A stretch of 64,000 bases of DNA. Source: Vermamoeba vermiformis. Its lineage: Eukaryota. The DNA lies in NCBI GenBank assembly GCA_045837725.1, contig JBEWZL010000115.1:62001-126000 (forward strand). Direction: 5' to 3'. Below are positions 13,804 through 64,000 of the stretch, one piece after another. Every line of letters begins with the position of its first letter. Position 1 is the first letter of the stretch. The position numbers and the translations under genes are program-made. A model generated the notes under the pieces. The model had not been told where the DNA came from and made no database searches. It saw only the letters and a list, made by a program, of their open reading frames with translations.

Positions 13804-16399
13804 ATGCGTCTTGCTACTCTTGCCACGTGTAACTTGGCCCAGTGGGCGATGGATTTCGAGGGCAACCTTCAGAGAATCAAAGAATCTATTAAAATTGCCA
13901 AAGAAAAAGGGTAAATTTATCGGACTAGGCTTAATATATCACCACTAAATTTAATCAAATCAGAAGAAAATTGTAGTTAATTATTGAAATTGAGTTTTGC
14001 TTATCGGAGTTGCAATTCCATTATTAGGGCTCGTTATCGCTTAGGACCCGAGCTAGAAATATGCGGCTATGGATGCGAAGATCATTTCTTGGAGCCCGAC
14101 ACTGAGCTGCACAGCTGGGAGTGTTTGGCAGATCTGCTCAAGACAGATCTCACTGACAACATACTCGTAAGTTAAGCTACTCACGCTATGTCCCCCTATT
14201 AACATTTAATGCATTAGGTCGAGTTAGGCATGCCAGTCTCCTACGGCGGAGTGCGCTACAACTGTCGTGTCTTCGCGCTGAACAGAAAACTCGTCTTTAT
14301 TCGCCCCAAACTGACCCTCGCCACTGACGGCAACTACCGAGAGGTACGGCCCTGCTACTTATGACTATATATACGCTGTGCTTACTGTGCTGCAGGACCG
14401 CTGGTTCACGATCTGGACGCGCGAGCGACAAGTTGTGCAGTACACACTGCCCCACGTGATCAGTCACGTGACTGGTCAGCGCACAGTGCCCCTCGGTGAC
14501 GGCATACTCGTGCTGCGCGATGTGACCATGGCCCCCGAGGTGTGCGAAGAGCTGTTCAGTCCCGTCAGTCCGCACAGTCTGCTCGCACTCAACGGCGTCG
14601 AGTTGTTCACGAACGGCTCTGGCTCGCACCATCAACTGCGCAAACTCAACTACCGCGTGGAGCTGATGAAAGGTACGCTGCGATCACGTGACACGCGCAC
14701 TGACACGTGACAGGTGCGATGGACAAGAACGGCGGCGTGTACGTGTACTCCAATCAGCAGTGCTGTGACGGCGGTCGACTCTACTTTGACGGTTGTGCGA
14801 TGATCATCTCGAACGGGCAAATGATCGTGCAGAGCGATCAGTTCTCACTGCGCGAGGTCGATGTCATGACAGCTGTCGTGGACTTTGAAGAAGTGACACG
14901 CTATCGTGCGGGCATGGGATCACGTGCCAATCAAAGTGCACATTTGCAGGCACACATGATTTATCCTAAAATAGAAGTCGATTTCGCGCTGTCAGTAGAC
15001 CCCGTCGCGACTCACCAGCGCCAGGCCCCGACACCCGCTGTGCCCGTCAAGTACTTGCCCGTCGAAGAGGAGATTGCGTTTGGTCCCTCGTGCTGGCTCT
15101 GGGACTACTTGCGTCGGTCAGGCATGAGCGGCTATTTCTTGCCGCTGTCTGGTGGTGCCGACAGCAGTGCGACAGCAGCCCTGGTAGGCATCATGTGCAA
15201 GCTGATTGTGCAGGACATTGGCGAGGGCAATCAACAGATCCTCGCCGACATTCAACGCGTTGCTGGCATGGACCACACTTGGGTGCCCAAGACTGCTGAA
15301 GAGGTAGTGGTGCCGCACTCTGTTTGACACGTGTCACTAACACACCTGCATTAGATTGCCAACAAGATCTTCGTGACGTGTTACATGGCCTCCAAGAACA
15401 GCGGTGAAGAGACGCGTCGTCGAGCGGCAGCGCTGTCCAAACAGATCGGTGCCATGCACTTGGAGATCGCCATTGACCCCGTGACCAGCGCACTCGAACA
15501 AGTGTTTGTCAGCACCACGAAGAAACAGCCCAAGTTCAAAGTGCACGGCGGCTCTGAGACTGAGAACTTGGCCCTGCAGAACATTCAAGCCCGCTCACGC
15601 ATGGTGCTGGGCTATCTGTTCGCGCAACTGACGCTGTGGAGTCAAGGGCGCAAGGGCAGTCTGCTCGTGCTGGGCAGTGCCAATGTCGACGAAGCACTGC
15701 GCGGCTATTTGACCAAGTACGACTGCTCAGCGGCAGATATCAATCCCATCGGTGGCATCAGCAAGACAGATCTGAAGAGTTTCTTGGCCTGGGCGAGCAC
15801 TGGCTGGGCCAACTACACCGTGCTGCGCGACGTCGTGACAGCTGTGCCGACAGCAGAGCTGGAGCCCAGTGTGGAGGGGCACGTGCAGCAAGATGAAGTG
15901 GACATGGGCATGACATATCAAGGTCAGTATCACCACAACACAGGTGCGCACAATACTAACTGCGCGCACAGAACTGACGCACTACGGTCGATTGCGCAAG
16001 GTGCACAAGTGCGGACCAGTGGCCATGTTCCACAGACTGCTGACTGCCTGGCCAGACTTGACACCGAAACAAGTGGCAGACAAAGTGAAGCGATTCTTTT
16101 ACTATTACTCCGTCAATCGCCACAAGTCCACTGTGTTGCCTCCAGCCTATCACGCAGAGGGCTACAGTCCCGACGACAATCGTTACGATCTGCGTCAGTT
16201 CTTGTACAACGTCAAGTGGCCCTGGCAGTTCAAACAGATCGACGCCGCTGTGCAGGCACTCGAAGCACCACCCACGGCCAGTGCACTCAAGACACAAGAG
16301 GACGAGACGAAGCAACGTGAACGCGCGCTGCTGGAAGAAGAGGCACGACTGTTGCAAGCCAAGCTCGATGAAGTGCGCAACAAGTTGAAGTCACTGTAA
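13804..16399 (+). CDS. NADSYN1: Glutamine-dependent NAD+ synthetase
   Basis: [91 protein letters not shown]. Confidence 0.97.
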
Positions 16400-16403
16400 T
16401 TCG

Positions 16404-16418
16404 AATAAACTGTTTATT
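16404..16418. terminator. Back-to-back AATAAA polyadenylation signals in the 30-bp gap between convergent genes
   Basis: AATAAAC-T-GTTTATT inverted repeat between stops at 16399 (+) and 16430 (-). Confidence 0.55.
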
Positions 16419-16429
16419 ACACAATGCAT

Positions 16430-19400
16430 TTAAGACCACTGCAAGGTGAATTCAGAGCCCATGGAGAGAGTGAGGCCACTGACTGCCAAGACTTGCAGCT
16501 GACTGCTGTACGACACTGCGACACCTTTCACGGACTGACCATTGATGAGCACGCGCGTCACTGGACTGGTGACACCTGACACGCGCACTGACTGCAGACT
16601 GAGTGCTGCGAGGGGTGCGTAGCTGCAGCCATGTTAGTACTGCTGCCACATCGATGAACAAGCACGTGACTTACCCGTTCTGTTCGAGCGTGGCTTTGAG
16701 CTGACCGTTACGCACGCTGTAAATCACGTGACTGTAGTTGCCAGTGGTCGCGACATCGAGCGAGACACCATCGTCCCAATAGAGCTCGCCACTCGCATCA
16801 CCAGTTGACACCGAGTGACACGAGCAGTTTGAAGGGGTTCTTGCGCGCAGCAGTGGTGGTCAACGCTGGCTCTTGCAACACCAGCACTGACTCGCCGCGC
16901 AGATGCAGATTGATCTTGTCGATCGGTGCGTCTATTTATAGCTGTCAGTACTCCGATACCTTTGCAACTATTCGCAACACTCACCCAAGGTCTGCACGCC
17001 ACTCTCGACAGGTGCGCCGCTGTAGAAGTCGTACCACTGCGCGGCTGGTGGGAAATATCCCTGCACGGAGGTCGCACCCTGAGCGAGCACGGGTGTGATG
17101 AGCAGACTGGCACCGAGCAAGTACTGCGCGTCAATCTCCAGGCAGTTGTCGTCAGCGGGGAATTCGAAGAACAGAGCACGTGCTACTGGCTGACCAGTCA
17201 CGTGTGCGGTGAAGAATTGCGTGTAGAGATAGGGCAGGATGGAATAGCTATATTTGGGCATGAGATCTGTGGCTGCGAGTGATCTACCAGGGCACTTACC
17301 GAATAAGGAGCACGTCACGTGATATTTTAGCCAATTTAGGACCAAAGGCGTAGGGCTCTTGACTGCGCTGATTCACTGAATTGTGATCGCGGCTAAAAAT
17401 AGATGCAATGCTCAGCACATAAGTCCGTTGCTAAATATAGCACTTACGCGAATGGATAAAAAGCACCGAGCTCAATCCAGCGCGTGCAAATCTCCTCTGT
17501 GGTGTCGCCGTTGAAGCCGCAAATGTCCGCACCGACGAGTGGAATACCAAATAAGTTCATGGTGAGAATTCCTGCAATGCTTTCGTACATGGCTTGGAAG
17601 GTGCTGTAGTTGTCGCCGAGCCAGTGCGCGCTGTTGTGTCCCGTGCCTGCAAATGTCGAGCGACCAATCACCACTGAGCGCTGCTGCAAATAGCTCTCCA
17701 GGGCATTCTTCGTAGCTGGCCCTGGTCAGTGAACTGCGGCAACAAGAGCTAAAAATAGCACTACGTACCAATGCCCTCGAGGTGACCGTACAAATTGTGC
17801 GCGTTATATTCTAGCGTGCTGTAGTGTCGCGCACTCAGCGAAATCGTGTGGCGATCGAGTGCATCACCGCCGTTCACTGAAAGCACGTGTCAGTCGTGCA
17901 ATTAATACCGTGACACGTGTCACTTACCAATCTTGAACGGAGGATTGTCGGGATCAAATCTTCCGTCACGTGATATGGTGGCACGTGACTCGCGGGCAGG
18001 ATTGCACTCGCCGTTACAGAAATTTGAAATTTCATTCATGTCAATCCACAGGCCATCGAACTCAATGCCTGATTGATGGAATTTCACGATTTGATTCTTC
18101 CAATACTCCGCTGTCTTGGGGTGCGTGAAATCTAGCATTGTTAGCCATTTTAGGAAGGTGCTTTAAATAGTTACCTGGGAAATAAGTGTGGCCGGGCCAG
18201 ACTTTGCCTAAAAAGTACTGCACAACCAGTCAGCGCGTTCACTGAAACAATGCCACGTGTCACTCACCGAGCCGTTGCTGCTCTTAATGAACAGATCGTC
18301 TTTCAGTCCCTCGTCGTACGGGGCATATCCCTTTTCAGGATATATGCCTGGATCGACGATCATCATGTAGTGTTTGCCATCGTCTAAAAATAGATCAGCT
18401 CTGTGCCCAAATATGGCACGTGATGGACGTACCGTGCAGCTTCTTAATGAACTCGCTCATGCGCTTGAGTGGATAGCGCACTGGATCTGTCGTGAAATCT
18501 CTGCCACCAGATGAGTATACCGGTGTATACCTGAGTCTAAATATAGCTTACTTGTACTGGTCCATGTAGTCAATGTCATTCCACATGGTGTCGAGCTAGG
18601 TACAGGTCAGTATGTGACACGTGTCAGATGAAGGACAGTACGCACCGGTATACCATAATAGGTATAATTGTTGACAACATCGATCACCTCGTCCAGATTG
18701 TGGTATCCCCAGCGACACTGGTGCCAGCCGAGTGCCCAATAGGGTGGCAGATGTGGCAGACCAATCACCTGCATGTACTGACCAATCACCTCGCTCGGCG
18801 TGTCACCGATCATCACGAACTGGTCCACCACGCCTCCCATCACGCGATAGGTCAATTGGCCTGACGTCAACTGCACATCTATATTTGGAAATACGAGTGA
18901 GTTCGATTACCATATTAGGCAAGTACGCACCCATGCCGTTGCTGTTCAACAAGAACACTCCGTGAGCTCGGTGATTGCTGTCACGTGATCGTCAGTCACC
19001 ACACAATTACCAAATATAGACAACAGTTCCGTACCGCATCTCCAAGTAGAAGGGATGCACGCCGTAGAGATTGAGCATGGCTGGAGTGCCGCGATCACGT
19101 GCGTAGAGCGAGTAGGTCTGATTGCGCGCGTCTAATTTGAGTCGCGTGATGCGCTCTCCGAGTCCGTAAATGACAGGTGTCATCGGCAGCTGCGTGCTCC
19201 ACTCGAGATACTGGTCCTCGTACTGGCACTCAGTCAGCAAGAGGTACCCCCCTAGCACTATATATATATCACCCCCTGTGTGTACGTACGATCAAGGCGT
19301 TGAAAGCAGTGGCAGCACTCGGCGTGGTGTTGAACAGCACTTCTCCATCCACGCGTCGCGTCACTGCCACACCGAAGGGATTGGCCGTCCAGCTCACTTT

Positions 19401-19976
19401 GTAGTTCTGCCGCGATGGGGTTAGTATGATAGTGCCGCGATAGAGTTAGTATAATAGTGCCGCGAGGGCGTGGTGTGTGCGTACCAATGTAGCAGGTTTC
19501 TTGGAAGGCATCTCGATCTGCGTGACGTTGGGCACTGGTGAACTAGGGTCAGTACCGACCTCAATGTGGCACTCATGTATCATTACCTTGCCAACGATCA
19601 TTGTTCGGGTCTATGATCTGAATGCGCACGATATCTGAGGTCATGTAGTAGATGTTCGCGACGAGCTGTTGCAAATCCGCACCATAGGGTCCTTCAGTAC
19701 CGGCTCGTAATTGCAACGACAGTGACTACGCGGGGTATTAGCAATATAATTATAACAGCAAATTATCGCAAGCACATTTTAAATGACATTGCCGCTAAAG
19801 ATATTCTAATCGCTATTAAATAAATAAGCGTGCAAAGCCATTAATTGCACCAATTCAATATTAATATTACTGCTTACAGTGCCCCAAGGTGTTTGAGCTG
19901 AGTGAGTCACATAATACGCAGCCAAGGCGTTCGAGATGCAGAACACGAGCACCAAAGCGAGGCCAAGCAATCTCAT
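16430..19976 (-). CDS. GH31 lysosomal/secreted alpha-glucosidase (GAA/maltase-like), many introns
   Basis: Signal peptide [54 protein letters not shown] (nucleophile), [24 protein letters not shown]. Confidence 0.95.
19409..19465. repeat. 25-bp tandem duplication in a GH31 intron
   Basis: tgccgcgat(g/a)g(g/a)gttagtat(g/a)atag x2 plus a partial third copy. Confidence 0.7.
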
Positions 19977-20159
19977 CACTAGTTTGGTACACTATAAAAT
20001 ATGTAGTGACTAATACTAAGATAACAGCGCAACTGTCCGCGCTAAAAGTTTGTGTGAAATATCTCCACGAAATTTCTGAGCACGTGACCAGATCCAACAC
20101 CTGATCAAAAGATGCTTTTCTACGTAGATATTACAATATTTAATAGTATCACTGTACAA

Positions 20160-23100
20160 TTACAACGCAGTCAATCCAAAGTCATCGCTGCCATACACGG
20201 TGAAGCTGAAATTCGCCTCTTTGCCTGCCTGGAAAATGGCGGGAATGATGATGTACGTGCCTGCGGGGAGATTGAGCTCTAGCAGCACTACAATAGGACG
20301 CAGCATTAGTATTCATTCACTGCACGTAACATGAGTGCCACTTACCATCTTTGGACAAGGAGAATTCGCTTTTACCGACCAAATTGGGCTTGGTGAAGGT
20401 GAGCTTGGCGTCGTCAGCCTTGCGGAAGACATAAAAGCCCACTGCCAAGAGATCAGTCTTGGGGTTCTGATGCGGCTTCAAGTGCTGCGTGAGACACAGG
20501 AAGTAGCGCGCACTCTTCTGACTGAACACGATCAGCTTCGGATTCTGCAGCCACGTGGGATTGTTCATGCAGCCACCGCACGTGTTGTTGCTCTTGCTCC
20601 ACGCAGTCTCGTGCGAGCGTTCCACCCAATTCGAGGGCACGCGCGCGAGCTTGGTGATGTGCGGACCAATCACGCGCAGGGTGAAGCTGTTCTCCTCTTT
20701 GGGATAGAAGGTGGTCGGTATGATCACAAAGCTGCGTCCCTCGCTCGTGTTGATGGTCATGCGCTTGGACACGCGATAGTCGTTCAGATACTCGGCCGAG
20801 GCAATCACGTCCTTGCTCGTCAGCTGCATCAACTTGTCCTGCAGATCCAGCGGCGCTTTCACCACCAAGAAGCCAATGTGCGGCAGCTGTGCCTTGCCCG
20901 CAGCAGCAGGGTGGTGGTGGTGGTGCCAGGCTGCGCACTCATCACTCGGACGTTGTTGTTGTGCAGGTCCTGCTCCAGCACCAGATCGATCGTCACGTCC
21001 TCGTCGTCCACCTCCTCCAGCTCCAAGTAGTACTGCGCATTCGAGCGCCAAGTCGGGAAGTTGATGCACCCTCCTGCCGTGCACTGCACATGCGACCACG
21101 CACCCTTGATGAGCGTGGCCTGTTCGCGCACAGGGGTGAGTGTGATAATGTCGAGATCGGTGTACACTGTCATGCCGAATGAGCCCTGGTAGCCCGCATT
21201 GTAGGTGCACGGTACGATCAGATAACTGCCGCGCTCCAAGCTGAGGCCACTCATCGAGACCTCTTTGAGATCCAAGAAGTTCTTCGTCTTGTGCATCAAT
21301 TTGTCGCGCGACAGTGTGCCTGCCTCGCCCACCTCAGCCTTGAACAGATAGAAGCCAATGAACGGTCGCTCGCTCTGCACGCCACCCGTGCTCTTCGCGG
21401 TGCTTTCATCGCGGTGCAGCACAATGGTGAGCTCGTTCTTGGTGACGAGATTGAAGTGAAATTTCGGGTTGTTGATCCACGAGGTGTTGTTCATGCAGCC
21501 ACCAGCCGTGTCGCTGTTCCAGGCCCCAGTGGTCGTCGAGTGTTCCCAGGGCTTCACTTTGCTCAACATGAAGCTGCGTGTGGCGTTGTTGTTGCCCTCA
21601 GCCTTGTACGCTGCGAGCACCGAGAGGGTGAAGCGCGCAGTCTGGCCCGGTGCATAGGTCGTGGGCATCAGAATGTAGTGTCCTGGCTCTAACGCGAGCT
21701 TGCCCGGAGTGATCTCCGTCTTCTTGTGAAATTTCGAGTCTCGCGTGACGAGGGCCTCGCGCTCAAAGAACAACAACTTGCGCTGCGGTGGTGCAGGCAC
21801 TTTGATGCAGTAGAGACCAATGTGCGTCAACAGCGAGTCATTCTGCGTCAAGAAGATGTACAAGTCCACTGCGCGCTTGATGTGCAGGTAGTACTGCGGA
21901 TTGTTGCGCCACGACGAGAAGTTGATGCAACCCCCCGCTGTGTCGCCCTTCCACTCGCCTTGTATGGCAATCTCTTCCATATCGGGCACGGGCTTGATGG
22001 ACAGCTTGACATCGGGACTCGGAGTGAGCAAGTAGAGATCGTAGGTGATCTCTTCGCCCAGCGGCAACTGTTCGGCATAGGGCACGATGACGTACTTCAT
22101 GTTCGCGTCTTGGAACTGCAGCTGCGAGGAGACTTCGGGGGCACGCACGGGGGGGAACTCGCTGTGCAGACCATACGAGGGCAACACTGCCAAGCGGTGC
22201 TGAATGTCGCGCAGCTGCAGCACGTAGAAGCCAATGTTGAGCTGCGGTCTGTCCGACTTGACGGCAATGCACAGCTGACAGGGCCGGTTCACCGTCACCA
22301 CCCACTGCGGATTGTTGCGGAACGGATTCTTGGCTGCTACCTTGCCGCGCCACACACCTAGCTGTTGGTGCACTTGATAGCTCGGATTGTTGCGCACGAA
22401 TGAGGTGCTGGCAGCACTGGCGGTGGTGAATGAACGGCGACGCGTGACAGCATCGCTGTTGGTGCTGGGCGGGAAGAGATTGTCGCGACTGTTGGAGGGT
22501 GAGGTGGGCTTGTCAATGGCATCCAACTCCGCCAGCAAGGAGCTGATCTCGCGCGAGCTCTTGTTCTGCGAGTCCACTCTGTTCAGCGCTGGACGCACCG
22601 TGTCGTTGGTGCGAATGGTCACCGAAGCACGACGAGCCTTGCGCTTGTTGTCAGGCGTGCCTTGACTGCCAGGCTCCATCAGCCCACTCCAATCGATCGA
22701 GTTCCTGCGCTTCGAGCCCTGATCATTCACGCGCAGCTCAGCACTGCGACGATTGGTCGGTGTGAGCATGATCGCTGCTTGAGCCTTGCGCAGCGGAGTG
22801 CTGGGTGTGAGCACAATGTTCGGCGTGGGACTGGCAGGCACGGGACTCTCTTTGGGTGCCGAGACACGCGGACTGACCGGCACCTCGTAGTCGCTGTGGT
22901 CGTCCGAGTCGTCGTCGTTGAACTTGGCGCTGGCAATGGGCAAGTCAAACAGACCAAAGCTGTCGCCACTGCTCGCGGGGTCTGACAGCTCGCCCATGCC
23001 CTCGTTCAGACCGTCCAAGCTGATCGTGTCGTCGTCGCTGTCGTCCGCATTCGCATTGGCAATCGCCTTCATGGTGAGCTCAAAGCCCCCGTGCTCGCGT

Positions 23101-29627: not shown

Positions 29628-29997
29628 AGCACTGACGTGTACAGCCATGCTCGGTGCTGCTTGTGAATAATAAACGCATTTGTACATACTTGTTGGGGTC
29701 CCTGATTTGACACGCGTGATTGTGACACCTGTCACTCGTATTTTCACGCATTTTTTATTCATTCTTGTTGCACCACACCACACCACAACAACAAGACATA
29801 TATATGTGTTAGCATAGCACAATAATAGACATTTAACACGAATCAAATTGACAGTGGATCCAACACTAACTTTATTTACGGCAGTGAGTGTCCAATATTT
29901 AATTATTATCGCGCACTAAACAATACATTACTTATTATTATGCTTAGAGAGAAAGAAACTGCCTTTTGGAGTCAAATTCAATTTAGCGTAGATCAGC

Positions 29998-41168: not shown

Positions 41169-41227
41169 ATCAGCGGACTTTATGTACAAATTAGGCAAGT
41201 GTTCTACAGTGACGACACGTGTCACAG

Positions 41228-48203: not shown

Positions 48204-48244
<41 letters not shown>

Positions 48245-52141: not shown

Positions 52142-52323
52142 GGGGGCACTTCATTGGTACCAGCACACTTCTACTCGAGGGGTGGTTCATTTTTTTAATG
52201 ACCAGGTGTGTTGTTGAACTCCCTATGTACATAGTTATCAATAAATAGCGTTGTGCGCTGTATTTACAACTGTACATCCGAGTAGTAGTATACACCATCC
52301 ATCCTATGAATACACACCATCCA

Positions 52324-53163: not shown

Positions 53164-53167
53164 GGCT

Positions 53168-53240
53168 AGTGTTGTATATATTGATGGCGTTGTATATAAT
53201 GATAGTGTTGTATATGATGATAGTGTTGTAATAATATTAT
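53168..53240. repeat. ~18-bp degenerate tandem repeat upstream of SAP30BP
   Basis: About 4 copies of gtgttgtatat(a/g)atgata. Confidence 0.65.
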
Positions 53241-53478
53241 ACAACGGTGTTGCGCGGCAATAAAGGCCCGTGCAAAATATCAGTCACGTGCAGCACAGTG
53301 GGTCCATAGCGCGCATTCACCCGCAGCGAGCAGCACATTAGACACTGCGACTATACTCACTCTATTGACTACTGCTGCACTGGAGTGGGCTGGATTTGTT
53401 GTTGTATTTGTAACGCAGCACACCTCGTCTCACCTACATTGCACTGCTCATGATTCACTAACTCACTGCATTATTTAA

Positions 53479-54762
53479 ATGTCCAATATTTCCAGGTATG
53501 AGACTCACGTGCCGTATTATTTAAACGATTATTAGCCGATCGCAAACAATTCCAAATAAATTTTAAATAAATAACCAACGCAATATCATCATCGTAGATA
53601 ACTACGTCATGGCATTATATACCGTCTAAAATAACGATCAATTGCGCAGGGTTCCCGAACAACACGATCAGACCGTTAAAGGCAGTCCGATCCAATCACC
53701 GTCCACGACACTAGAAGACACGCATAATGCGGCTAAAAATAGACGCAATGACATGCGGTGGCAAGATATACTCAGCAACATGTTGAGTGGCTGTGTTGCT
53801 GGGGCCATGGCTGCCATCTTCACAGGTGCGTATCTTTGCAGTTGTTGAAAATGTGCTGACAGCTATTTTTAGCACCACTCGATTTGGTAAAGACGCGACA
53901 GCAAGTGACACATCGCCACAGTGCCACACACTCGAGCATTGCCAGTACGACGCGGCACATCTGGTCGCAAGAAGGTTTGGTCGGATTTTTTCGTGGATTA
54001 TATCCCACGCTGTTCTCCCTCGTGCCCACGTGGGCGATATATTTCACGGTGTACCAATCACTGAAGAGCACGCTGGCGCAACAGGGACTGGTGGCACCTG
54101 ACACTGCGCGTCTACACCTGTTAGGTAAGTGACACTTTTGACACGTGTCAACAATGCGTGGCGGACACAGACTGACACGTGTCACAGCGGCGATGGGCGC
54201 AGGCATCACGACGAATGTGTGCACGAATCCGCTGTGGGTGATCAAGACGCGCATGCAGACCCAGACGATGGACGGCCAGACCGCCAAGTACTTCGGCATT
54301 GTCAGCTCGCTGCGCACGGTGGCGCGTGAAGAGGGACTGCGCGGCCTGTACCGCGGTCTGTTCCCCTCGCTGCTCGGTGTCGCACACGTCTGCGTGCAGT
54401 TCCCGCTCTACGAGAAGTTCAAACGCTATTTTGCCACGCGCCACCACAAGTCAGCGGAACAACTCTCGCTGTCGGAGCTGGTGATGGCCAGCAGTGCCAG
54501 CAAGATGATTGCCTCCATGGCAGCCTATCCTCACGAACTCGTGCGCGCGCGATTGCAAGTGGCACATCGCCACCACCATCCGCACCTCGGTGCCGCACAT
54601 CCGACGCTGCTCACGGTGATCAAGCACACGTGGCACAAAGAAGGTATGCGCGGCTTCTATCGCGGCATGTTCACCAATCTGCTGCGCGTGACACCAGCGT
54701 GCGCCATCACCTTTACCACGTACGAGCTAATTCATCATCGCTTGCGTCGCCTCTTATTGTAA
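53479..54762 (+). CDS. Mitochondrial carrier, Ndt1/SLC25A32-like (NAD+/folate/FAD clade)
   Basis: Three signature motifs PLDLVKTR, PLWVIKTR, PHELVRAR; PTWAIYFTVY, HVCVQFPLYE, LLRVTPAC. Confidence 0.88.
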
Positions 54763-54819
54763 ATATTACTTCGAACAAAAAACAACTGCAATTATTATCC
54801 CACAAGTGTACAGCGCTTG

Positions 54820-56649
54820 TTATGTTACATGTGCATCACGTGATTGCACTTGGTGTTGTTGGTGCAGTACTCGGCGGAAATACTGCGGGTAATCCACGTG
54901 CTGCGTGAAGAAGGCGTGTTCCAGGGCCTGTGCAGCACTGATGCGGCGTGCGGGATCGTACTCCAGCGTGGCACGAATCAGGCGGAAAAACTCGAGCGTG
55001 AGGGGCTCATCGTCAATGACGATCAGTTTGTCCAAGGGCTGCAAGTGCGAATAGAGATCGCGATCTTGGTCAAATCTCCGCTGCTGATCACGTGACACCC
55101 AGTGACTCGGAAATGCTCCGAGCACACGCTGCATCATGAGCAGGTGATCGTGATTGTGCCGCGTGCGGAATAATGGATCACCCATCCACAGCTCGATCAA
55201 GATGCAGCCCACAGCCCAGATGTCAACTTCTGGCCCCCACGTGACATTGTCGTGTTTCTGTTGCCGAACATTAGTGACACTCCATGATGTGACACGTGTC
55301 AAACGCAGTACCTTGTTGCCAGTGCGGTGTGCCTCCCACATCACTTCAGGGGCGCGGTAGTGACGCGTGCCAACCACGCGTGAGCGGTGATCAGTGCGTG
55401 CCACCGCTGAACCGAAATCTACGACCACGAGCTCGGGGTTGAGCACTTCAGTCACGGAGAGCGGCGATTGACACGTGTCAATTTTGACAGGTCCCCATTC
55501 AAAAGCAAGCCTGCTCTCTACATTGACAGGTGTCATGCGTGTGTCGCGGAACAATAGATTCTCGGGCTTGAGATCAGTGTGAATTATTCCGTGCTTGTGC
55601 AGGGCAGCGAGTGACGTGAACAGCTGTCGCGCGATGCAGCGAATGACAGGCAAGTAGAGCGGTTGAAACTGATTGGTCCGCATGTAGTCGAACAGACTCG
55701 TGCCACACAGCGGAAAAACCATGCACACGTGATTGCAGTACTCGAACCAGCGTTTCAAGTGAATTATTCCGCTCTTGTGTTGCGGGTCGATAGCATGCAG
55801 TTGATCGAAGATGCGTATCTCAATCATGGCTGCATCTCTATATTTGGGCACGGCGCGGATCACTTTGACAGCCACGTGCGCACGTGTCTCGCGGTCCCAG
55901 CACTCCAACACCTTGCCGAAGGTGCCTTCACCCACCACTGCGAGCTGCTTGTCTGTGCCACCAGTCAGTACGAGCACGTGATCAAATATGCTGGGAGTGT
56001 TCCCAAGCACGTGACTTACATCGCGGCGTGAGATCTCCCCCGAGATTCACCAGCACGTGACCCTCGCTGTCGTGGTGGTCAGCATAGCGACTGTCCACGC
56101 GACTCTCAGCGCGCACTGACGGAGCACGGCGTGTGGTCGGAGATCTCCGATAATCTCGCGAGTATCTCCGCTCATGACGCGTGTGACTAGCGCCAGGACT
56201 GCGCGTGCGATGATGACTGTCGCGGTGACTGTTGCGTCGCGTTCTGTCACGTGATCGATGTCGCTGGAAGTAATAGGACTCTTTGTAGTCGTAGCGCGGG
56301 TAATGGCGCGTGTTGGAGTGTCGATCTGCTCGGTAATTCTGCGCGCAATTAGATCTGATCACTGCCTGGAGTGTACAATTACCGATTCCTCTCTGTATGC
56401 GGTACGTTGATAATGAGGGCGAGGGTAGTTGTTTTGATAGTGTCTGAAGCATGAAAATAAAATAATTAATGGAAATTATTCCTGATCGAAATTTATAACC
56501 GATGATTATCATTATAATGGAGCGATTTACGGGAAGAATTTTCGTATAATTAATGTGAGCAACAGGACCTCGTACCGATCGTAGTTGTAATCGTTGTTGT
56601 AGCGTGGCTCATTGTAACCGCGATTGCGCCACAGATCACGAGTCGCCAT
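54820..56649 (-). CDS. Divergent CLK/LAMMER kinase with RS-rich N-terminus
   Basis: GEGTFGKV, KYRDAAMIEI, HTDLKPEN, DFGSA, TRHYRAPE; LAMMER variant DHLLMMQRVLG. Confidence 0.88.
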
Positions 56650-56855
56650 TGAATAGAGCGCTAATTATAGTAACAATAGACCGATATAGTGAATGCTACT
56701 AGAGCTGTGTTCATTATTAATGAACTGTCTTAAACTGTGAAAAAAAAGTAACTGCAAAGAGAGACACGTGATTTTTGCTGAAATTTCGTACTCCTCGTGC
56801 AAATGAAGGTGAGCGCTACAATAGAGAGGTTTATATATACACGTGTATGCTACAG

Positions 56856-57878
56856 TTAGAGCGGGGTGATTTTAACGTGACTGGCCTCACTCGGCACAGA
56901 CCGGTCAATGACACGCATGACATCTGTCAAACGGCGACTCTGCGGCCAAATCACGTGCGTGGCTCGTCCCTGAATGAGTGCGAGAGGTATCTAGGTGACA
57001 GGTGTCAATGAGAGGTCTGCACGGTGAGTGCTAAAAATAGCTACGTACAGGTCCGTAGTGATTGGAATCGATCGATGAGCGGTGATTGTCGCCCTCCACC
57101 CACACGTGTCCTGCAGTATTGACGCGAGATGTGAGTGAGATACAAGGCATATACCACGTGATCACGCACCTGCTGGCACTTCACGCCACCGCGCCAAGTG
57201 ATCGCGATCGATGCGCACCGTCTCACTGCCCTGCCCATTTATAGTAATGTTATCGTGCGTGCTGGCACTGTTGGTACTGGCACAATGCGGAGTGCTGGCA
57301 CTATTTTTAGCCGCAGCAGTGTGAGTGGCGCACTCCTCCAGCACGTGCAGCAGCTTGTCGTCCTCCTCGCGGTGCAGGTGCGAATGTACGCGCACGAGTT
57401 GCGGCGTGTCAGCGCTGTGGTGGACAGCAATCACGCGCTTGATGAGCTGTCGGCCGCGGTGTTGTGGCGAGTGAAAGCAGACCACATCGCCTGCCTGCAC
57501 CTTGTCGGGCACGTACTGCCACCGCCGCACCAGCACTAGATCTGCTGCTCTGCTGCGCCGTTAGCCTCGACAATTATTTCAAATATAGTAGCATATTCAA
57601 AGGACAGTGTATTGCTGGCACTGATATTGGCCAGTATTGAATTTAAACTGTTGTGTTGGAATTTATAATGCAAATAAATACCTAGAGTACGGATCTGGAT
57701 TCAGAGCTGGACGCATTGAGCCACCTTCAATCCACACTACCGATGCTACTCGATCAGTAAACCACCACAGCAAGCCGAATGAACCGACAACTTTAAAGCC
57801 AGTTTTGGCCCATCTGTTGAGCGCAGCACGTGATGGCCGCGTTGTTGAATAGGCACGTGTAATGACTCGCGTGAACAT
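56856..57878 (-). CDS. IMP2: Mitochondrial inner membrane peptidase subunit (IMP2-like, S26)
   Basis: GGSMRPALNP (catalytic Ser), LIKRV (catalytic Lys), GHVWVEGDN..SIDSNHYGP, IPLALIQGRATHVIWP. Confidence 0.85.
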
Positions 57879-58308
57879 ACAAGGGCGATGTATACTGGTA
57901 TATTTATATAATAATTATGGGGTGTGTTGTTAGTACGGTGCTGAATGATGTTGATTTTCAATTTTGAATCGTTGACAGGCACACACAGGTGAGTGCACTG
58001 CACGGCATTGCGATGCATATAACAGTAGCGGCTATTAATACCGAGCGGTGCGAGTGACTAACCACCTCTCGCTGCGATCCTTAGCGACAATTTCAGAAAT
58101 TTACCCGATCTGTTTATTCAAATAACGTTGCATCACATTCGAATTATCACTTAAAATTATTGCATATTTATTTACTGTTACCAATTTACGTATCTTTTTC
58201 ACTTGTTGAATTATTGGATCTGCTCTGCCGGCAGCCATTAATTAATCGCACTGCACCAGTACTATTTAAGCCACTACACGCACCAGTCACTAACACCGCG
58301 CACAGCTG

Positions 58309-61300
58309 ATGACAGACAACAGCACTGCACCCCTCGCTGAGCCCTTCGCTGAGCCCCTCGCTGCTCCCGTGCGCCAGTTGCCACCAACGCTATTTTTGCC
58401 GCCGTTCAACGACGGTGAGGCGTGGCTCGTGCCCGAACAGGAGCGCGTGGTGCAGCTGGTGATCTTGACCATCATCTTCTTGGCGGGCCTGATCGTGCTG
58501 CTCGCCATCGTAGAGGCCGTGTTCAAGAAGTGCTGGCCCAACTCTGTCTTCTTGAGCTCGCGTCGGAGATTGCTCCGCGTCAAGTACGCCTCGTCTGAAT
58601 TTGGATTTTACTCGGTACGTCGTGATTGGTCTGTCTCACTCGTCGCTGATGCCCAAATTAGGAAATGGTGTTCACGGTGCTGAGTCTGTGCAGTTGCGCG
58701 CTGTTCATGTATCTCGCGATATCTTTGCAGTCCTTGGCAGGCACGGAGGTAGATCCGACGACCATCTTCACGCAGCCGTTCGTGTACTGGATTGAATTCG
58801 CGATCAGCGCGCTGTTTGCACTCTACTACCTCTTCATGCTGCTCACTTCCATGTCCACGTAAGTCTCGCGCAGGGCAGTGTTTGACACGTGTCAACTAAT
58901 CGCCTGTCAGTTGGAAGTTCGTACTCAATCCGTGGAGCATTGCGCAAATTGTGACAATTATACCCGGACTGGTCAGCATTGCCGTTGAAGAATATTATTG
59001 GTGCGTGCAGATCACAGTTTGACACGTGTCACCGCGACTGATTGCCTAATTAGGTTCTTCTTGCCACTGCGCATCTTGCAGTTCAATCGCTCGCTGCGCT
59101 TCTTGAAGGGCTACGGCTGGAAGTTGTTGGAAAGTAAGTTGTTCCGCTCGCACGTGTTTGACAGGTGTCACTGAGTGACCTCGCCCACAGATCGCAACAG
59201 TCAGATCGTGTTCTTCTTGTCGACCATCTTCTCGTACCTGTTTGTGGCCATGGGCTTCATCTTCGTCTCCGAGAACAGCATCACCGCAGCTGATGGACAG
59301 GTGCGTGTGACGAGTGCGGCTAAAAATAGAACTGACTGGCCCGATTAGGTGAACAATCTGCTCGATGCGCTGTATCTCATCGTGATCTCGCTGTCCACGG
59401 TCGGTTACGGCGACATTGTGCCGAAGAGTGCGCTGGGTCGCGTGGTGATCATGGTGCTGATCGTGGGTGCCATCATCATTATTCCGCAAGAGCTCGCCAA
59501 GCTCATCAAGATCTTCTCGTCCTCGCGTATGCATACTGACCTCATTGCCTTATTTGGGCACCTCCAACTCACTTCTACATTAGGCAACAGCACGTACTCG
59601 GGTGAACTCGATCACGTGGTCATGTACGTGCCGGACAGGTCCGACATCTCGGCGTTCATTGAAGAGTTCTTTCATGAAGATCGCAAGCTGCAAGACACGA
59701 ACATGGCCCTGATGAGTGCCACCGACCTGCACGAGAACACCAAGGCCCTGCTCGTCAAGCCTCAGTACGGACTGCGCGTGGAGGTTATGCGCGGGGAACT
59801 CAATGTGAGTCATCCTTTGACACCTGTCATTGATGTGTCACGCTGACACGAGCTATTTTTAGAGCAAGTTCGATCAAAAGCGCGTCAAAATGATGAAAGC
59901 ACGTGCTGCATTTCTGCTGACCAATAAGAACCCGTCCAGTCAACACGATGCGCGTGAGTAGTCTATTTTTAGACACGTGATTGGGTGGCACTGACAGTAC
60001 TTTGCAGAGACTATTCTGACCGCGCTAAATATAGCCTCGTACAACAAACAGCTCGAGGTCTACGTGCAAATTTACAGCAAAGAACACAAAGCGACAGCAT
60101 TGTCACGTGGCATCAAGCACGTGGTTTGCATTGAAGAATTGAAGCTCGGACTCCTCGCGCAGAATTGTCTATATTTGGGCTTCTCCACGCTGGTTGGCAA
60201 CTTGATCCGTTCACTGAACGCGTCGGGTCACAAATTCAAGTACAACAAGTGGCTGCAGGACTACGGTACGGCACGTGACTATTGCCATTTTAGGAATGTC
60301 TGACAGCTATTTTTAGACTACGGTCTTGGTCATGAGTGCTACAGTGGTCGCGCGCTGACACCATATATAGGCCTCAAGTTCCACGACGTGGTGATGGCAA
60401 GTGCTAAAAATAGCTCTACACAGTATTAATTTCCAAATTAGTACATTTACAAGCGACACGAGGCCCTGCTGTTCGGCATCAAAAGCACCCCCGATGACAT
60501 GGTGGTGGAGGCAGTGCCCAACAGTCACGTGTCCATTCACGTGCGCAGCGAGGACGGCAGCACAGCTGCTGGCACTGGTGGCACTGGTGGCACGGAGGGA
60601 TCGATCGACGATGTGTTCATTGTGCTCAATCCTGGCCCCGAGTACGTCATTCAACCGGTACGTAGTGATCACGTGACTGGCACTAGCGATATACTCACTG
60701 TCACGTGGCAGGGTGACATTGGATTTTTCATCGCCCAAGACGAGCGCGTGGTGGACACGATTGTGAAAGATGAGCTCGGCGAATATCTCGGTCCCGATGT
60801 CTGGGAACAGACCATGACCAGTCTAAATTTAGGCTCACACTCCACACTGCCCGAGGACACCACCAATCAGGTGATTGAGCAGCGCAAGTTAGCCTTGATG
60901 AAGAGCGGCTTCAACGTCAAGACCTCCACGGGGTCCACTCAACCAGGGCCTGTCGATGAGGCTATTTTGAGTGACATGGAGCCCCGCTCTGGCGACAACC
61001 TATCGCGTGAAGTGTCACGTGAACGACTGGACTTGAGTCCTTCAGAGAACCGCAAACACCGCAAGAGCGACAAAATGACACGTGTCAAACCTGTCACTGG
61101 ACACGCACGACGTCACAGCTTGGACTCGGTACGTGACATTGGTATGCCGTTCAGTGAAGAATTCAAGACTCGTGAGGCTCGTCGCAGGTATTGTCCAAAT
61201 TGGGAAATGTCATTATTCTTTACACTCACATCTATTTTTAGCTTGGACATGGGTCGCGTGTCATTCTCTGACGACCAATCACGTGACAGTAGTGACAGGC

Positions 61301-62896
61301 CGTCAAAGACGAATTCAAAAGTGCAGTTCGATGTCAGCACACCACGTGATCAGTCATTGGACCAGCCGCACTCCGACAAGAAAAAGAATTCCTCCTCCGA
61401 ACAGAGAACTCGATCAGGATCGGGCACCAAATCAGGCAAGTCTGCCAAACTCGATCCGAATGCGCGTCGCACTCGCAAAAAAGACAAAATTCTTCCGCGC
61501 TTGACAAATAAGGAAATGCACGGTGCAGGTCACATCGCTCTGGACGAAGACTTGGTCAGTCACGTGATGTCCATGCGCGCGTGTCACTAACAGTTCTAAA
61601 AATAGATCCGCAACTACGTGCTGGTCGAGGACGAGCCCAACTTCCTGTCACGTGCCTCGCTGTACGAGGTGCCAGCAGAGATGCGCGATCACATTGTGAT
61701 TGTGTGTGACGTCACCACTGAGCTCTACACCTTGTTGCTGCCACTGCGCGCACAGTCCTTGCAAGCACGTGGTCTGTACCGCCCTGTCGTGCTGTTCTCG
61801 CCGCGCGTGCCAACGACTTTTCATTGGAATCGCATCTGCATTCTGCCGGACATCTACTTTGTGCGCGTAAGTGTTCGTTTGACACATGTCAATCGGCAGT
61901 CTACTTACCACCTCTACCAGGGCTCACCAACCAACACCAATGATTTGCAGCGCGCAGGTGTGTCACGTGCCTGGCGAGTAAGTTTCAGTGAATGGGCCTC
62001 ATGAATCAGATCACTGAGCTATTTTTAGGTGCTGATCATGTCGAGCATGTCGCTGCTGAACTACCGCGAGTACTTGGCCGGTGAAGAAGACAACACGGCG
62101 CTCGAGACCTCCGTGGACTCCACGGCCCTGCTCACCTTCAAGATGGTGCAAGCGAGTCAAGAACTGCTCTGCGACACCCATTGTAGAGCTCTGTGCGTAG
62201 TGCTCGATACTTGTACTCATTGGGCTATTGACTGATCTATTTTTAGTGTGTCCCGAGAACAGTCGCTACATTGTTTCAGTGAAACTCAAAAAGTTCAACA
62301 GTTTCGATGCAGACACGCTGAAACAGATTGTCAAGTCCGAGGAAGAGATTGCCGAGGCTGTACGTCACTTGTTGTACATGAGACATACTCGTACTCAATC
62401 ACGTGATATTTGCAGGGTGAATATCGCAATCCGAACTACGCCTCAGGTCAAGTGTTTTATGCCACACTGCTCGACACGCTGATTGGTCAGACGTACTACA
62501 ATGTGGATCTGCTCGACATCCTCGAAGACTTGATCAAGCCCGACACAGTGCACCTCGTGGCACTCACAGACAGACCACAGCTGCTCACGGAGAGCGGTGA
62601 CGCCAAGCCTGAATGCAAGCTGCGCACCTTCCTCGAGCTGTTCACGTACTTTGTCACGCAAGAGCGCGCACTGCCCCTCGGCATCTATCGCAAGGGCTCA
62701 GGTATTCATGAACCAAGTTATTTTTAGCGCAGCACTGACCATCTTGACAGGCATTCACAACGGCTACGTGTTGACAGTGCCCAAAAAAGACGAAGTGATC
62801 TTTGTGACGGACAAGGTCTTCTTGCTCAACCAGGGCAAGCTCAGCACTGAAATTCAAGCCAAATTGCAAAAGATCCGCGAGTTCCAAGACAGGTAG
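58309..62896 (+). CDS. Slo/BK-type potassium channel with RCK domains, many introns
   Basis: Pore ISLSTVGYGDIVP; VCIEELKLGLLAQNC..GFSTLVGNL; GSPTNTNDLQRAGV; NYASGQVF..LLDTL; LPLGIYR. Confidence 0.92.
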
Positions 62897-62950
62897 AGGC
62901 TGTCAGCGATGTAAATAGCCAAAAATAGAAATAAATCTTATTTATTGATG

Positions 62951-63989
62951 CTACGCGCCAAATGTCTGCGCGATGAGAATGGACAGCACGAGCACTGCAA
63001 TGAGTGCCAGCAACACACCACCACGTGATTTGTGTTGAGTATTTACAGGTTGAGGATTGACAGGTGCCTCGGCGGGTGTTGTTTTGACAGGTACGTTGTT
63101 GACAGGTGTCACTTCTGCACTTGGGCGCAATGTGTCCAATTCTTCTAACATGTCTGCAAACATCTTCTTGAATGCTGCAAAGATCAAACAAATGAGTCGC
63201 GCACAACACGTGCCACTAGCAACACGACAACTACGTACTCGGATTCTTGCGATTGAAGGCCATGGACATCTGTGCCAGCGCGCGCTTCTCACTGTCCGTG
63301 GTGCTGATGCTGCCCGTGGTGGACTGGTTCTCGAGCTAGTGCCAGGGCTGTTAACAATAGGGCTGTATAATCAGCGACAATACGCACCATGAATGACAGC
63401 AGCCCCGTCAATATGCTGCTCACAGACCACATTGGATTCCACGTCTCTGGATGGAACTGACAACGCGTGCATTAGTCGACTGCATGCCTCGTAGTGCACT
63501 TACATCGCTCATTGATAAGCACAGGCGCGTATTAGTGGCGAATCGACCGCTCGGCGTGATCATCATGATGCTCGGTGGTGCGTGCGGATAAGTCGTCGGG
63601 AACTTCAGCTTGCCGTGATAGACTCCTCCTTCATATACTGTGCCCTTAGGGCCAAACAATACTATGGCATAATTTCATTAATTATAGTCCGTTGTATAAG
63701 CATGATCGCAATTAAATTTAGTGCCACGTCAGCTGGATTCAATTTCAGAATAAAAATTCGAAATAATATTTCAAATAATTCTGTTATTATTCCTATGCCA
63801 AGAATATAGTATACCATAATGCCACTCAAGTATATTATCTGGATTGGGGTGCGTTTGAATATTTGGTGGTGGATCTTTAAGGATTTGTTGGTATTCCCTT
63901 TGTAGCCGTTTCTGTAATGATTCTTTAGCTTACATGATCATTAATAGTATCGATGTAGTACATACAACGTATTCTTTTTGTTGTGACAT
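62951..63989 (-). CDS. UBC6: ER tail-anchored E2 ubiquitin-conjugating enzyme Ubc6/UBE2J2
   Basis: [57 protein letters not shown]; hydrophobic C-terminal tail. Confidence 0.93.
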
Positions 63990-64000
63990 GTTAGCTGTCT

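Follow-up and report, generated by a model that had tools for sequence, protein, structure and literature searches.

Clustered palindromic words resembling protein-dimer sites in the short introns and coding exons of a Vermamoeba vermiformis gene subset

Palindromes in the window and their chance expectation

The window analysed here, 64,000 nt of Vermamoeba vermiformis contig JBEWZL010000115.1 (positions 62,001 to 126,000, forward strand), includes genes for an NAD synthase, an MnmE-like GTPase, Vta1, a mitochondrial carrier, a protein kinase and a K+ channel. What is said here about genes depends on a gene model built in this analysis, with 123 short introns, 102 of which are needed for an open frame; about a dozen splice joints were seen in RNA reads. 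A sequence scan recovered all 18 palindromes listed in the first-pass annotation, ten exact TGACACGTGTCA and eight TGACAGGTGTCA/TGACACCTGTCA, together with two centres absent from that list, at 56918 (TGACATCTGTCA) and 61880 (TGACACATGTCA), giving a total of 20 TGACA-NN-TGTCA copies (Table 1). According to the gene model, 12 of these are located in GT..AG introns of ~50 nt, 7 in modelled exons and 1 is intergenic, consistent with the earlier description of copies in unrelated genes, intronic and exonic alike, and broadly so with their placement in genes or 3' flanks and not in promoters. The concentration of the palindrome in introns of ~50 nt had been missed.

Chance does not account for these numbers. 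Dinucleotide-preserving shuffles yielded expectations of 0.04 for TGACACGTGTCA and 0.01 for TGACAGGTGTCA/TGACACCTGTCA, with the observed counts reached in 0 of 100 shuffles, and window-fitted Markov models of order 1-5 predicted 0.01-0.26 and 0.01-0.12 copies, respectively, the upper values being those of order 5. Even when an order-5 model was fitted to the motif-rich patches alone, the expectations were 0.55 and 0.38, far below the 10 and 8 copies observed, so the excess reported earlier withstands this comparison. The flanks of the palindromes are unrelated (mean identity of 21.4 over 80 positions across 380 pairs, with ~20 expected by chance), the longest exact extension between copies is 8 nt, and a repeat search of the window found nothing beyond families of 20-35 nt built around the palindrome; the copies are thus not a dispersed repeat, as had been proposed. 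The sites are covered, with few differences, by independent read-based contigs (X1 records 5 and 7; X4 record 14), making an assembly-polishing artefact unlikely, with the caveat that X1 may be the source sample itself.

Table 1. Palindrome copies, word-rich patches and RNA-confirmed introns in the window
Feature	Position	Strand of gene or intron	Setting	Remarks
TGACACGTGTCA	15325..15336	+	modelled intron 15310-15354, NAD-synthase-like gene (Pfam NAD_synthase)	CTAAC directly after
TGACACGTGTCA	17911..17922	-	modelled intron 17877-17927	5 nt past 5' splice site; second TGACACGTG close to 3' end
TGACACGTGTCA	18615..18626	-	modelled intron 18596-18645
TGACAGGTGTCA	19171..19182	-	exon of multi-intron gene 16430-20300	exon by gene model only
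TGACACCTGTCA	29723..29734		intergenic	96 nt past SART-1 reading frame end (29627), upstream of gene starting 30193
TGACACCTGTCA	30767..30778	+	modelled exon, ORF 29992-31395	no Pfam family
TGACACGTGTCA	54139..54150	+	intron 54125-54187, mitochondrial-carrier gene	first of two
TGACACGTGTCA	54173..54184	+	intron 54125-54187	second of two; 3 nt ahead of 3' splice site
TGACACGTGTCA	55290..55301	-	intron 55258-55311, protein-kinase gene	intron position conserved in relative, palindrome degenerate there
TGACACGTGTCA	55469..55480	-	kinase coding exon (kinase-domain insert)	reads Asp-Thr-Cys-Gln; AGACACGTGTCA in relative, 11/12 letters
TGACAGGTGTCA	55524..55535	-	same kinase coding exon	relative matches 11/12
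TGACATCTGTCA	56918..56929	-	5' part of kinase locus	exon or intron
TGACAGGTGTCA	56996..57007	-	modelled intron 56970-57022
TGACACGTGTCA	58883..58894	+	intron 58859-58910, Slo-like K+ channel gene
TGACACGTGTCA	59020..59031	+	intron 59001-59053, Slo-like K+ channel gene
TGACAGGTGTCA	59159..59170	+	intron 59134-59190, Slo-like K+ channel gene	adjoins a CACGTG
TGACACCTGTCA	59818..59829	+	intron 59805-59862	CTATTTTTAG is intron end
TGACACGTGTCA	61076..61087		modelled coding exon, K+ channel gene	reads ..K M T R V K..
TGACACATGTCA	61880..61891	+	modelled intron 61867-61920
TGACAGGTGTCA	63100..63111	-	provisional modelled exon, gene 62951-63390	9 nt past GTACGT (+ strand)
Patch A	14001..20300		NAD-synthase-like gene (+), multi-intron gene (-)	all three words together
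Patch	39700..42000		MnmE-like GTPase gene, 3' part of Vta1-like gene
Patch F	53700..63400		carrier, kinase, K+ channel genes, small (-) gene
Intron	61555..61605	+	51 nt	CACGTG and GTGTCA inside, CTAAAAATAG at end; RNA-confirmed
Intron	57111..57169	-	59 nt	CACGTG 9 nt past 5' splice site; RNA-confirmed

Three word families in gene-scale patches

Also unnoticed in the first pass, the palindrome is the rarest of three co-occurring word families, with 20 copies in the window versus 27 of CTAWWWWTAG and 122 of CACGTG. In 1-kb bins, CACGTG counts correlate with those of both CTAWWWWTAG (Spearman 0.51, p 1.5e-5) and the palindrome (0.42, p 6e-4). The three families mark some genes and pass over their neighbours: 106 CACGTG are concentrated in 22 kb of patches, with 16 in the remaining 42 kb, and the density of this word reaches 4.65 per kb in introns versus 0.8 per kb in untranscribed spacers; taken over whole gene bodies it is 3-7 per kb. 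Patch F holds 12 of the 20 palindromes and 72 motif centres, and the 39700..42000 patch has 17 CACGTG within 2 kb, for the most part exonic, and no palindrome. The density of motif sites is even along gene bodies, at about one per 100-200 bp across transcribed units, coding exons included; gene starts are not favoured and short upstream regions are no denser. The marked genes have no obvious common function, and the CpG observed/expected ratio is ~1 in rich and poor regions alike.

Each of the words has a strict anatomy. Inverted TGACA/TGTCA half-sites separated by 2 bp occur 20 times in the window, those with spacers of 0, 1 or 3-6 bp not at all, and the everted arrangement at most once. The flanks of CACGTG are dyad-symmetric, with A/G at -2 in 99 and T/C at +2 in 100 of the 122 copies; where TGA stands on the left (n = 13), the mirrored flank is also present on the right in 10 cases, and RTCACGTGAY is found in 24 copies, in modelled exons and short introns. 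Variants of CTAWWWWTAG differing in one outer letter number 0-8 each, compared with 27 copies of the word itself, 18 of which are CTAAAAATAG or its complement.

Coding sequence and the related species

The words intrude into coding sequence. Summed over genes, exonic CACGTG was found ~64 times versus ~29 in synonymous shuffles. The His-Val dipeptide is overrepresented in rich genes (25 observed, 10.2 expected) and occurs as expected in poor ones (6 and 6.0), and 23 of the 25 His-Val codon pairs in rich genes are CACGTG, with 13.8 expected. The pressure towards these words operates at the nucleotide level.

Comparison with ~2.3 kb of orthologous sequence from a related species, which together with the window makes up our evidence base, revealed 9 CACGTG and 2 CTAWWWWTAG kept across 1.9 kb of an orthologous gene. 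Among the exonic sites, 6 of 10 in the window are common to both species and the relative has 3 of its own, such that the density of CACGTG is kept at partly different positions; no exact palindrome was found in the ~2.3 kb. Both kinase introns are present in the relative and contain different words, indicating that words change inside old introns.

Binding sites and competing readings

The best reading of these patterns, which we favour tentatively and at somewhat short of an even chance, is that the words are dense double-stranded-DNA binding sites lying within transcribed regions and bound by paired proteins. TGACA-NN-TGTCA would be the putative site of a protein dimer, most likely of a TALE-type homeodomain protein, within a small vocabulary that would also comprise a bHLH-type site, RTCACGTGAY/CACGTG, and a MEF2/MADS-type site, CTAWWWWTAG. 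bHLH-zipper proteins recognise an E-box, CACGTG flanked by T/A. The resemblance to TALE dimer sites noted in the first-pass annotation is borne out: the site of MEIS, PKNOX and TGIF proteins, TGACAG(C/G)TGTCA, has the same inverted 5-bp half-sites and 2-bp spacer, the consensus listed for MEIS3, TGACAGGTGTCA (PMC5449588), is identical letter by letter to the eight-copy variant, and the TGIF1 crystal structure described in PMC6158717 has two monomers on ATTGACAGCTGTCAAT, the T's of which also precede many palindromes here. Unlike in the TALE site, the commonest centre here is CG, which makes an E-box core, and the copies lie in ~50-nt introns and exons, outside known regulatory DNA. The two co-clustered words likewise match the bHLH E-box and the listed MEF2 consensus, CTA(A/T)4TAG (PMC3250504), although neither such gene-body densities nor a role as an intron end, as CTATTTTTAG has here, is known for those sites.

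The strict half-site geometry and half-site coupling argue for dimer sites, as do the MEIS3 and TGIF1 matches, and the symmetric flanks of CACGTG, the specificity of CTAWWWWTAG with its MEF2 match, the nucleotide-level pressure and the persistence of words in the relative all favour the same reading. Co-clustering of three unrelated words is the behaviour of binding-site sets and not of a single driven word. Against this reading stand the even spread over gene bodies with upstream regions no denser, an uncommon distribution for regulatory sites, the lack of an obvious function common to the marked genes, and the absence of an exact palindrome from the relative's ~2.3 kb. Of the 12 intronic palindromes, moreover, 8 have TT upstream on the sense strand and none has AA downstream, an asymmetry that a symmetric dimer site would not lead one to expect. 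Animal binding-site clusters and intragenic enhancers contain many copies of few words within a few kb, and the cluster persists while single sites turn over; the patches here are alike in both respects, but their sites span whole transcribed units, including coding exons.

An unlikely alternative, proposed in the first-pass annotation by analogy with DNA-uptake sequences and HIP1, is a motif-accumulation drive, in which biased repair, gene conversion or a methylation-linked process would make or keep the words without any regulatory function, so that they pile up wherever constraint allows. Cyanobacterial HIP1 (GCGATCGC), for which such a drive has been proposed, and the DUS/USS of Neisseria and Haemophilus are short, vastly over-represented words that occur in coding sequence as well, at the expense of protein composition. 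The words described here resemble them in this intrusion, with the His-Val excess confined to rich genes, and site turnover at kept density, the even gene-body spread and the lack of a functional theme also fit a drive. The same holds for the scarcity in rich patches of some one-letter neighbours of CACGTG, namely AACGTG/CACGTT (3 versus 15.6 expected) and CACATG/CATGTG (5 versus 14.3), expectations that are inflated by CACGTG itself. HIP1 and DUS/USS, however, are single, genome-wide, bacterial words, in contrast to several words in a eukaryote, in gene-scale patches and densest in introns. The joint rise and fall of three unrelated words is not predicted by a single repair specificity, and the patchiness, the CpG ratio and the word-poor untranscribed spacers also count against a drive. 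The half-site geometry suggests a protein reader, through which a drive could nevertheless act.

Somewhat less probable still is an RNA-level code, in which the words, exonic ones included, would be read in pre-mRNA as splicing or processing signals of one intron class. The words are mainly limited to transcribed regions, and RNA reads show that three motif-bearing introns are spliced: reads skip from 54110 to 54187 across intron 54125-54187 (5 in X21, 3 in X23), the joint 61553 to 61605 is present in X21, X23 and X4, and that from 57108 to 57168 in 6 reads of X21 and 10 of X23, with another CACGTG 2 nt into the exon downstream of the latter intron. Intronic palindromes, often with TT upstream, lie downstream of the 5' splice site and ahead of the branch word, which is ACTGAC in rich-patch and CTAAC in poor-patch introns (CTGAC 23 versus 4, TAACA 6 versus 15; Fisher p 1e-4). 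Furthermore, in 14 of its 22 intronic copies the last letter of CTAWWWWTAG coincides with the modelled 3' splice site, and part of this family could thus be a splice signal only; the acceptor model behind these calls, having learned from its own predictions, may be biased towards such ends. Of these 22 copies, 15 are T-rich (10 of them at the 3' end), 5 A-rich and 2 balanced. Yet copies of CTAWWWWTAG that are not at the 3' splice site are found in either orientation, which favours binding sites, and five lie just past the 5' splice site, useless as a 3' signal; all three words correspond to classic sites on double-stranded DNA, and it is not obvious what dyad-symmetric flanks and half-site coupling would mean in single-stranded RNA. 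The two TGACACGTGTCA copies of intron 54125-54187 could pair with each other (12-bp stem, MFE -22 kcal/mol), but motif introns fold at best weakly more strongly than motif-free ones (mean z -0.56 versus -0.08, p 0.057) and the 2-nt spacer makes a hairpin loop impossible, so folding of the RNA leaves the pattern unexplained.

It is improbable that the words are relics of a family of tiny mobile elements that generate introns (introners or MITE-like elements), whose terminal repeats would have been the palindrome or E-box and whose inbuilt 3' end would have been CTGAC..CTATTTTTAG. In favour, two intron populations can be told apart by their branch word, their 3' end and the motifs they contain, the same word lies near both ends of introns 54125, 17877, 60658, 55953, 27122 and 17393, 3' modules recur (CTGACAGCTATTTTTAG at 53826 and 60266; CTGACAGCTATAAATAG at 16932) and a 9-nt direct repeat flanks intron 60266-60316, but flank comparison and repeat search found no homology outside the words, words of at least 6 nt common to both intron ends are in no clear excess over permuted pairs (0.29 versus 0.23 in rich, 0.25 versus 0.18 in poor patches), the words of conserved kinase introns have changed, and the exonic CACGTG excess is left unexplained. 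Introners and introner-like elements, which in the available accounts are families of introns that mobile DNA has produced in Micromonas, Aureococcus, fungi and dinoflagellates, likewise form a class whose common sequence modules set it apart from the remaining introns of a genome; here, by comparison, there is no similarity beyond modules of 10-17 nt and no clear target-site duplication, the two intron positions tested are common to a diverged relative, and exons are affected too.

In the binding-site reading, the sites would crowd the transcribed bodies of some genes of a compact genome, with the ~50-nt introns carrying most of them, often one or two each, because sequence constraint is least there. 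Some may do double duty as splice signals, CTATTTTTAG as pyrimidine tract and 3' splice site and CTGAC as branch word, and exons would accept sites where the protein tolerates them. As the first-pass annotation had suspected, literature searches by motif and by concept found no described equivalent of protein-site-like palindromes that fill very short introns and spill into coding sequence. Proteins bound at these sites may regulate the marked genes of this amoeba or organise chromatin over them.

Architecture and over-representation of the palindrome

The 10 copies of TGACACGTGTCA and 8 copies of the variant TGACAGGTGTCA/TGACACCTGTCA reported in the first-pass annotation were all recovered at their positions (10/10 and 8/8), against only 0.04 and 0.01, respectively, expected from shuffles keeping dinucleotides. 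A scan for TGACA-NN-TGTCA added two copies with other central letters, bringing the total to 20. Low-order Markov models, up to order 5, do not account for these counts, with expectations over the whole window of at most 0.26 and 0.12; an order-5 model trained on the motif-rich patches alone yielded 0.55 and 0.38. The number of palindromes thus exceeds all Markov expectations, and oligonucleotide composition is insufficient to explain it. The sequences flanking the palindromes agreed at 21.4 of 80 positions (~20 by chance), with the longest exact extension being 8 nt, and a repeat search of the window returned only families of 20–35 nt, all centred on the palindrome. Because the flanks are alike at chance level, the copies are not fragments of a dispersed element or MITE, in agreement with the original assessment. 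Several copies are covered by read-based contigs from two runs, with few differences. Separately, the DNA contigs of run X1 break or mis-join at palindromes, implying that the word and a few flanking letters are common to other places in the genome.

Inverted TGACA/TGTCA pairs occur 20 times with a 2-bp spacer and never with spacers of 0, 1 or 3–6 bp; for everted pairs, no spacer yields more than one occurrence. A CACGTG core is missing from half of the copies, so that conservation resides in the two TGACA arms. Of 13 CACGTG sites with TGA on one flank, 10 carry the mirrored TGA on the opposite side. The arms of the palindrome show no covariation, being one fixed word, and the 2-nt centre cannot serve as a hairpin loop. 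The geometry is that of a protein-dimer site, making the palindrome a putative site of this kind. The resemblance to TALE-homeodomain sites noted earlier extends to the architecture, inverted TGACA half-sites with a 2-bp spacer being the same as in the published consensus: PMC5449588 gives TGACAGGTGTCA as the MEIS3 consensus, and PMC6158717 describes two TGIF1 homeodomains bound to ATTGACAGCTGTCAAT.

Distribution of three words among introns and genes

The window is eukaryotic, with long frames encoding protein kinase, calpain domain III, SART-1, ABCE1, WD40, PAK-like, MnmE-like, NAD synthase, Vta1, mitochondrial carrier and Slo-like K+ channel domains. A search with the SART-1 protein retrieved one near-identical protein, two relatives at 84–85% (one from a EukProt transcriptome, the other from a Logan contig) and, at only ~30%, plant proteins. 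ABCE1 proved too conserved to be informative on taxonomic placement, and the source is treated as a free-living protist. Runs labelled as water, aquifer, soil and biofilm metagenomes matched small fractions of the sampled words, and no habitat is assigned from them. Genes were modelled by two-strand dynamic programming with codon log-odds and GT..AG introns of 38–500 nt, an approximate procedure whose splice matrices were derived from its own predictions. The evidence base as a whole comprises this one 64-kb window, ~2.3 kb of a relative and this home-made model.

Among the 123 short introns modelled, 102 must be removed to obtain an open frame. Short introns make up 11.8% of the window but contain 12 of the 20 palindromes (binomial p 3.5e-7), 10 of them in frame-required introns (p 7.6e-6). 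Seven further copies fall in modelled exons and one between genes, so that under the gene model the palindrome does lie within introns and exons of unrelated genes, as had been claimed. RNA-derived joints were found for three motif-bearing introns and also for motif-free ones. These joints come from RNA reads of another strain (95–99% alike) and from contigs obtained in a further run. Because RNA depth is low, the majority of introns are supported by the gene model only. Two longer minus-strand introns absent from the gene model are RNA-supported, showing that intron length is not uniformly ~50 nt. In the last 20 kb, reads of RNA runs carrying the same species label match at 95–99% identity only (134 of 154 reads of X21 and 325 of 363 of X23 in this band); the two runs represent another strain, usable for polarising motif gains and losses.

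Coordinates of features in the window
Feature	Position	Strand	Remark
Additional palindromes	56918; 61880		other central letters
Multi-intron gene	16430-20300		marked
ORF	30193-31395		marked
Region showing K+ channel gene	58500-61700		TVGYGD pore; gene split by many ~50-nt GT..AG segments harbouring words
Genes in two regions	1-13 kb; 45-53 kb		unmarked
Kinase-calpain frame	20859-23717	-	single frame, 952 residues
AT-rich stretches	7300-10500; 37000-39700; 48000-49200		GC 0.36-0.44; no modelled gene, none of the three words
Tandem repeat	41379-41435		15-bp unit TCACGTGATTGGTGG, ~4 copies, in linker of Vta1-like gene (coded on minus strand)
RNA joints, motif-bearing introns	61553 to 61605; 54110 to 54187; 57108 to 57168		second intron has two palindromes
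RNA joints, motif-free introns	49236-49911		
Longer RNA-supported introns	47884-48370; 44570-44714	-	485 nt; 143 nt
CTAWWWWTAG intron ends in RNA joints	61605; 53872		
Kinase introns tested in relative	55258-55311; 55953-56019		
Candidate intron gain	60266-60316		51 nt; 9-nt direct repeat GACTACGGT on both sides
X1 contig breaks or mis-joins	55287-55313; 58894-58896; 59153-59171; 63085-63112		at palindromes
X1 mis-joints	55313 to 59153; 58896 to 63085		21-letter sides
RNA runs of another strain compared	44001-64000		

Two further words accompany the palindrome. CACGTG is the top palindromic hexamer (122 copies vs 53 for the next) and often lies within RTCACGTGAY, and CTAWWWWTAG, the MEF2 consensus according to PMC3250504, occurs 27 times, compared with 0–8 times for each word that differs from it by one outer letter. 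In 1-kb bins, CACGTG correlates with CTAWWWWTAG (Spearman 0.51, p 1.5e-5) and with the palindrome (0.42, p 6e-4), with a variance-to-mean ratio of 3.4 for CACGTG itself. The rich patches, delimited after the counts had been seen, contain 106 CACGTG in 22 kb (20.5 expected from an order-2 Markov model), vs 16 in the other 42 kb. All three words are densest in short introns (CACGTG 4.65, CTAWWWWTAG 2.93 and palindrome 1.6 per kb), compared with modelled exons (1.98, 0.09 and 0.2) and unassigned DNA (0.8, 0.11 and 0.06). About ten modelled genes have 0–1 CACGTG, whereas their neighbours have 3–7 per kb: the NAD-synthase-like, MnmE-like, carrier, kinase and K+ channel genes are marked, as are a multi-intron gene and an ORF, and the ABCE1 and WD40 genes are unmarked, together with those of two further regions. 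The words are also almost absent from a frame combining a protein kinase domain with calpain domain III, although it adjoins a motif-rich gene.

A split of the genes by CpG depletion or gene-body methylation was rejected, the CpG observed/expected ratio being ~1 in all genes and bins. Nucleosome-like spacing, hinted at by a run of 130–165-bp gaps in the K+ channel gene, was not supported by this sample; the pair-distance histogram over three patches had no peak of repeating site spacing. A tandem repeat of TCACGTGATTGGTGG unites an E-box with a CCAAT-box word, so that slippage is a further way in which copies of the motif can arise. CCGG is rare across the window (56 vs 102 expected, ratio 0.55), and several hexamer palindromes are nearly missing (CCCGGG 0, TCCGGA 1, CCTAGG 2, TCTAGA 2 and CATATG 3).

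Patch introns favour the branch word ACTGAC and introns outside favour CTAAC (CTGAC 23 vs 4, TAACA 6 vs 15; Fisher p 1e-4). Eleven of the 12 intronic palindromes start 5–25 nt past the 5′ splice site, several abutting the branch word. For 14 of the 22 intronic CTAWWWWTAG, the end of the word coincides with the modelled 3′ splice site, an arrangement that the acceptor matrix of the gene model may favour, and RNA-derived joints show two ends of this kind; other copies lie just past the 5′ splice site or inside the intron, in either orientation. The mean folding z was −0.56 in 41 motif introns and −0.08 in the 63 motif-free ones (p 0.057); a structured RNA or mirtron-like hairpin was rejected, given this weak difference, long stems in 2 introns only and no covariation. 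Introns of the window have only 10–17-nt modules in common, and words of ≥6 nt shared between intron ends showed no clear excess (0.29 in own vs 0.23 in permuted pairs). Introns with two words combined the same word 7 times and different words 7 times, giving no signal of same-word pairing (~0.39 same expected). One 51-nt intron, the exception in this comparison, is flanked by a 9-nt direct repeat, as a result of which Asp-Tyr is duplicated in the protein, and is a candidate for recent intron gain with target-site duplication.

Effect on coding sequence and comparison with a relative

Summed over all genes, modelled exons contain ~64 CACGTG, vs ~29 after synonymous-codon shuffling, in all three frames. 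Marked genes encode 25 His-Val pairs (10.2 expected), 23 of them as CACGTG (13.8 expected), whereas unmarked genes encode six (6.0 expected), one as CACGTG. The excess over synonymous shuffles and that of His-Val in marked genes indicate a pressure on nucleotides that has altered the proteins.

Searching metagenomes with the kinase frame retrieved two overlapping contigs, L001 and L003, of a related species (88–89% protein identity). Both kinase introns testable against L001 are at the same positions, revealing no lineage-specific ones, and their sequences are otherwise unalignable. One palindrome of the window is a degenerate copy in the relative, the corresponding intron carrying CTAATTATAG instead. 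By hand count on the alignment, 6 of 10 exonic CACGTG sites are common to the relative and three are specific to it. Over 1.9 kb, L001 contains nine CACGTG, two CTAWWWWTAG and no exact palindrome, with two exonic sites matching 11 of 12 letters. Shared intron positions with differing words indicate turnover of the words within old introns at a maintained density. Nine more distant loci (L002 and L004–L011; 31–63% identity, GC ~0.3–0.47), informal negative controls only, showed no enrichment, with 0–1 palindromes and 0–7 CACGTG in 1–21 kb.

Candidate explanations and significance

Our tentative preference is that the words are putative DNA sites for dimeric proteins, densely set within the transcription units of only some genes. 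The binders would be TALE-type, bHLH-type and MADS-type proteins, with sites chiefly in micro-introns, where some may double as splice signals. This reading is favoured by the site geometry and dyad symmetry, by the words being identical to three classic sites, and by the clustering together of words that are unrelated in sequence. That the words spread evenly along gene bodies and that the marked genes have no functional theme in common counts against it, as does an asymmetry of palindrome introns, which on the sense strand have TT upstream of the word in 8 of 12 cases and AA downstream in none of 12; a symmetric dimer site does not predict this. A more far-reaching proposal, conceivable but doubtful, is a combinatorial DNA code running through whole transcription units, or a drive of the HIP1/DUS type acting through the same proteins. 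Micro-introns would then mainly carry TALE-type, E-box and MEF2-type sites, coding sequence would be bent to provide more, and the words might mark a gene class for a chromatin or transcription state.

A HIP1-like drive by itself appears rather unlikely. Recoding of coding sequence and turnover of sites are what it would produce, but it fits poorly with several words and a patchy distribution. Of the analogy with HIP1 and uptake sequences originally drawn, over-representation beyond composition stands, and spread irrespective of gene does not, as far as the 64 kb extend. An intron code operating at the RNA level, in place of DNA sites partly doubling as splice signals, we regard as quite unlikely. 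Descent from very short introners is the least probable of these, given that introns of this window share no introner-type similarity over their whole length and that both testable kinase introns occupy old positions. The remaining probability is kept for something not considered here.

Literature searches by exact words and by concepts, outside subscription journals and supplements, found no description of such a pattern; the first-pass annotation likewise knew of no equivalent in eukaryotic gene bodies. Each word is already known as a single site; what is new is their density, their location in micro-introns as well as in exons, and their patchiness from gene to gene. A combinatorial code or drive, if true, would be a genome organisation so far undescribed for eukaryotic gene bodies. 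Should the preferred reading hold, signals in eukaryotic DNA would take precedence over the encoded protein sequence, as the His-Val excess encoded by CACGTG would indicate. To our knowledge, the main other examples of such overriding are bacterial uptake sequences and HIP1. Neighbouring genes that differ sharply in marking provide an experimental handle on expression, chromatin, replication and recombination, and annotation by upstream-only motif scans would miss most sites in such organisms. If the words are indeed DNA sites, very short introns would have a function, namely, to provide room for protein-binding words in a compact genome.
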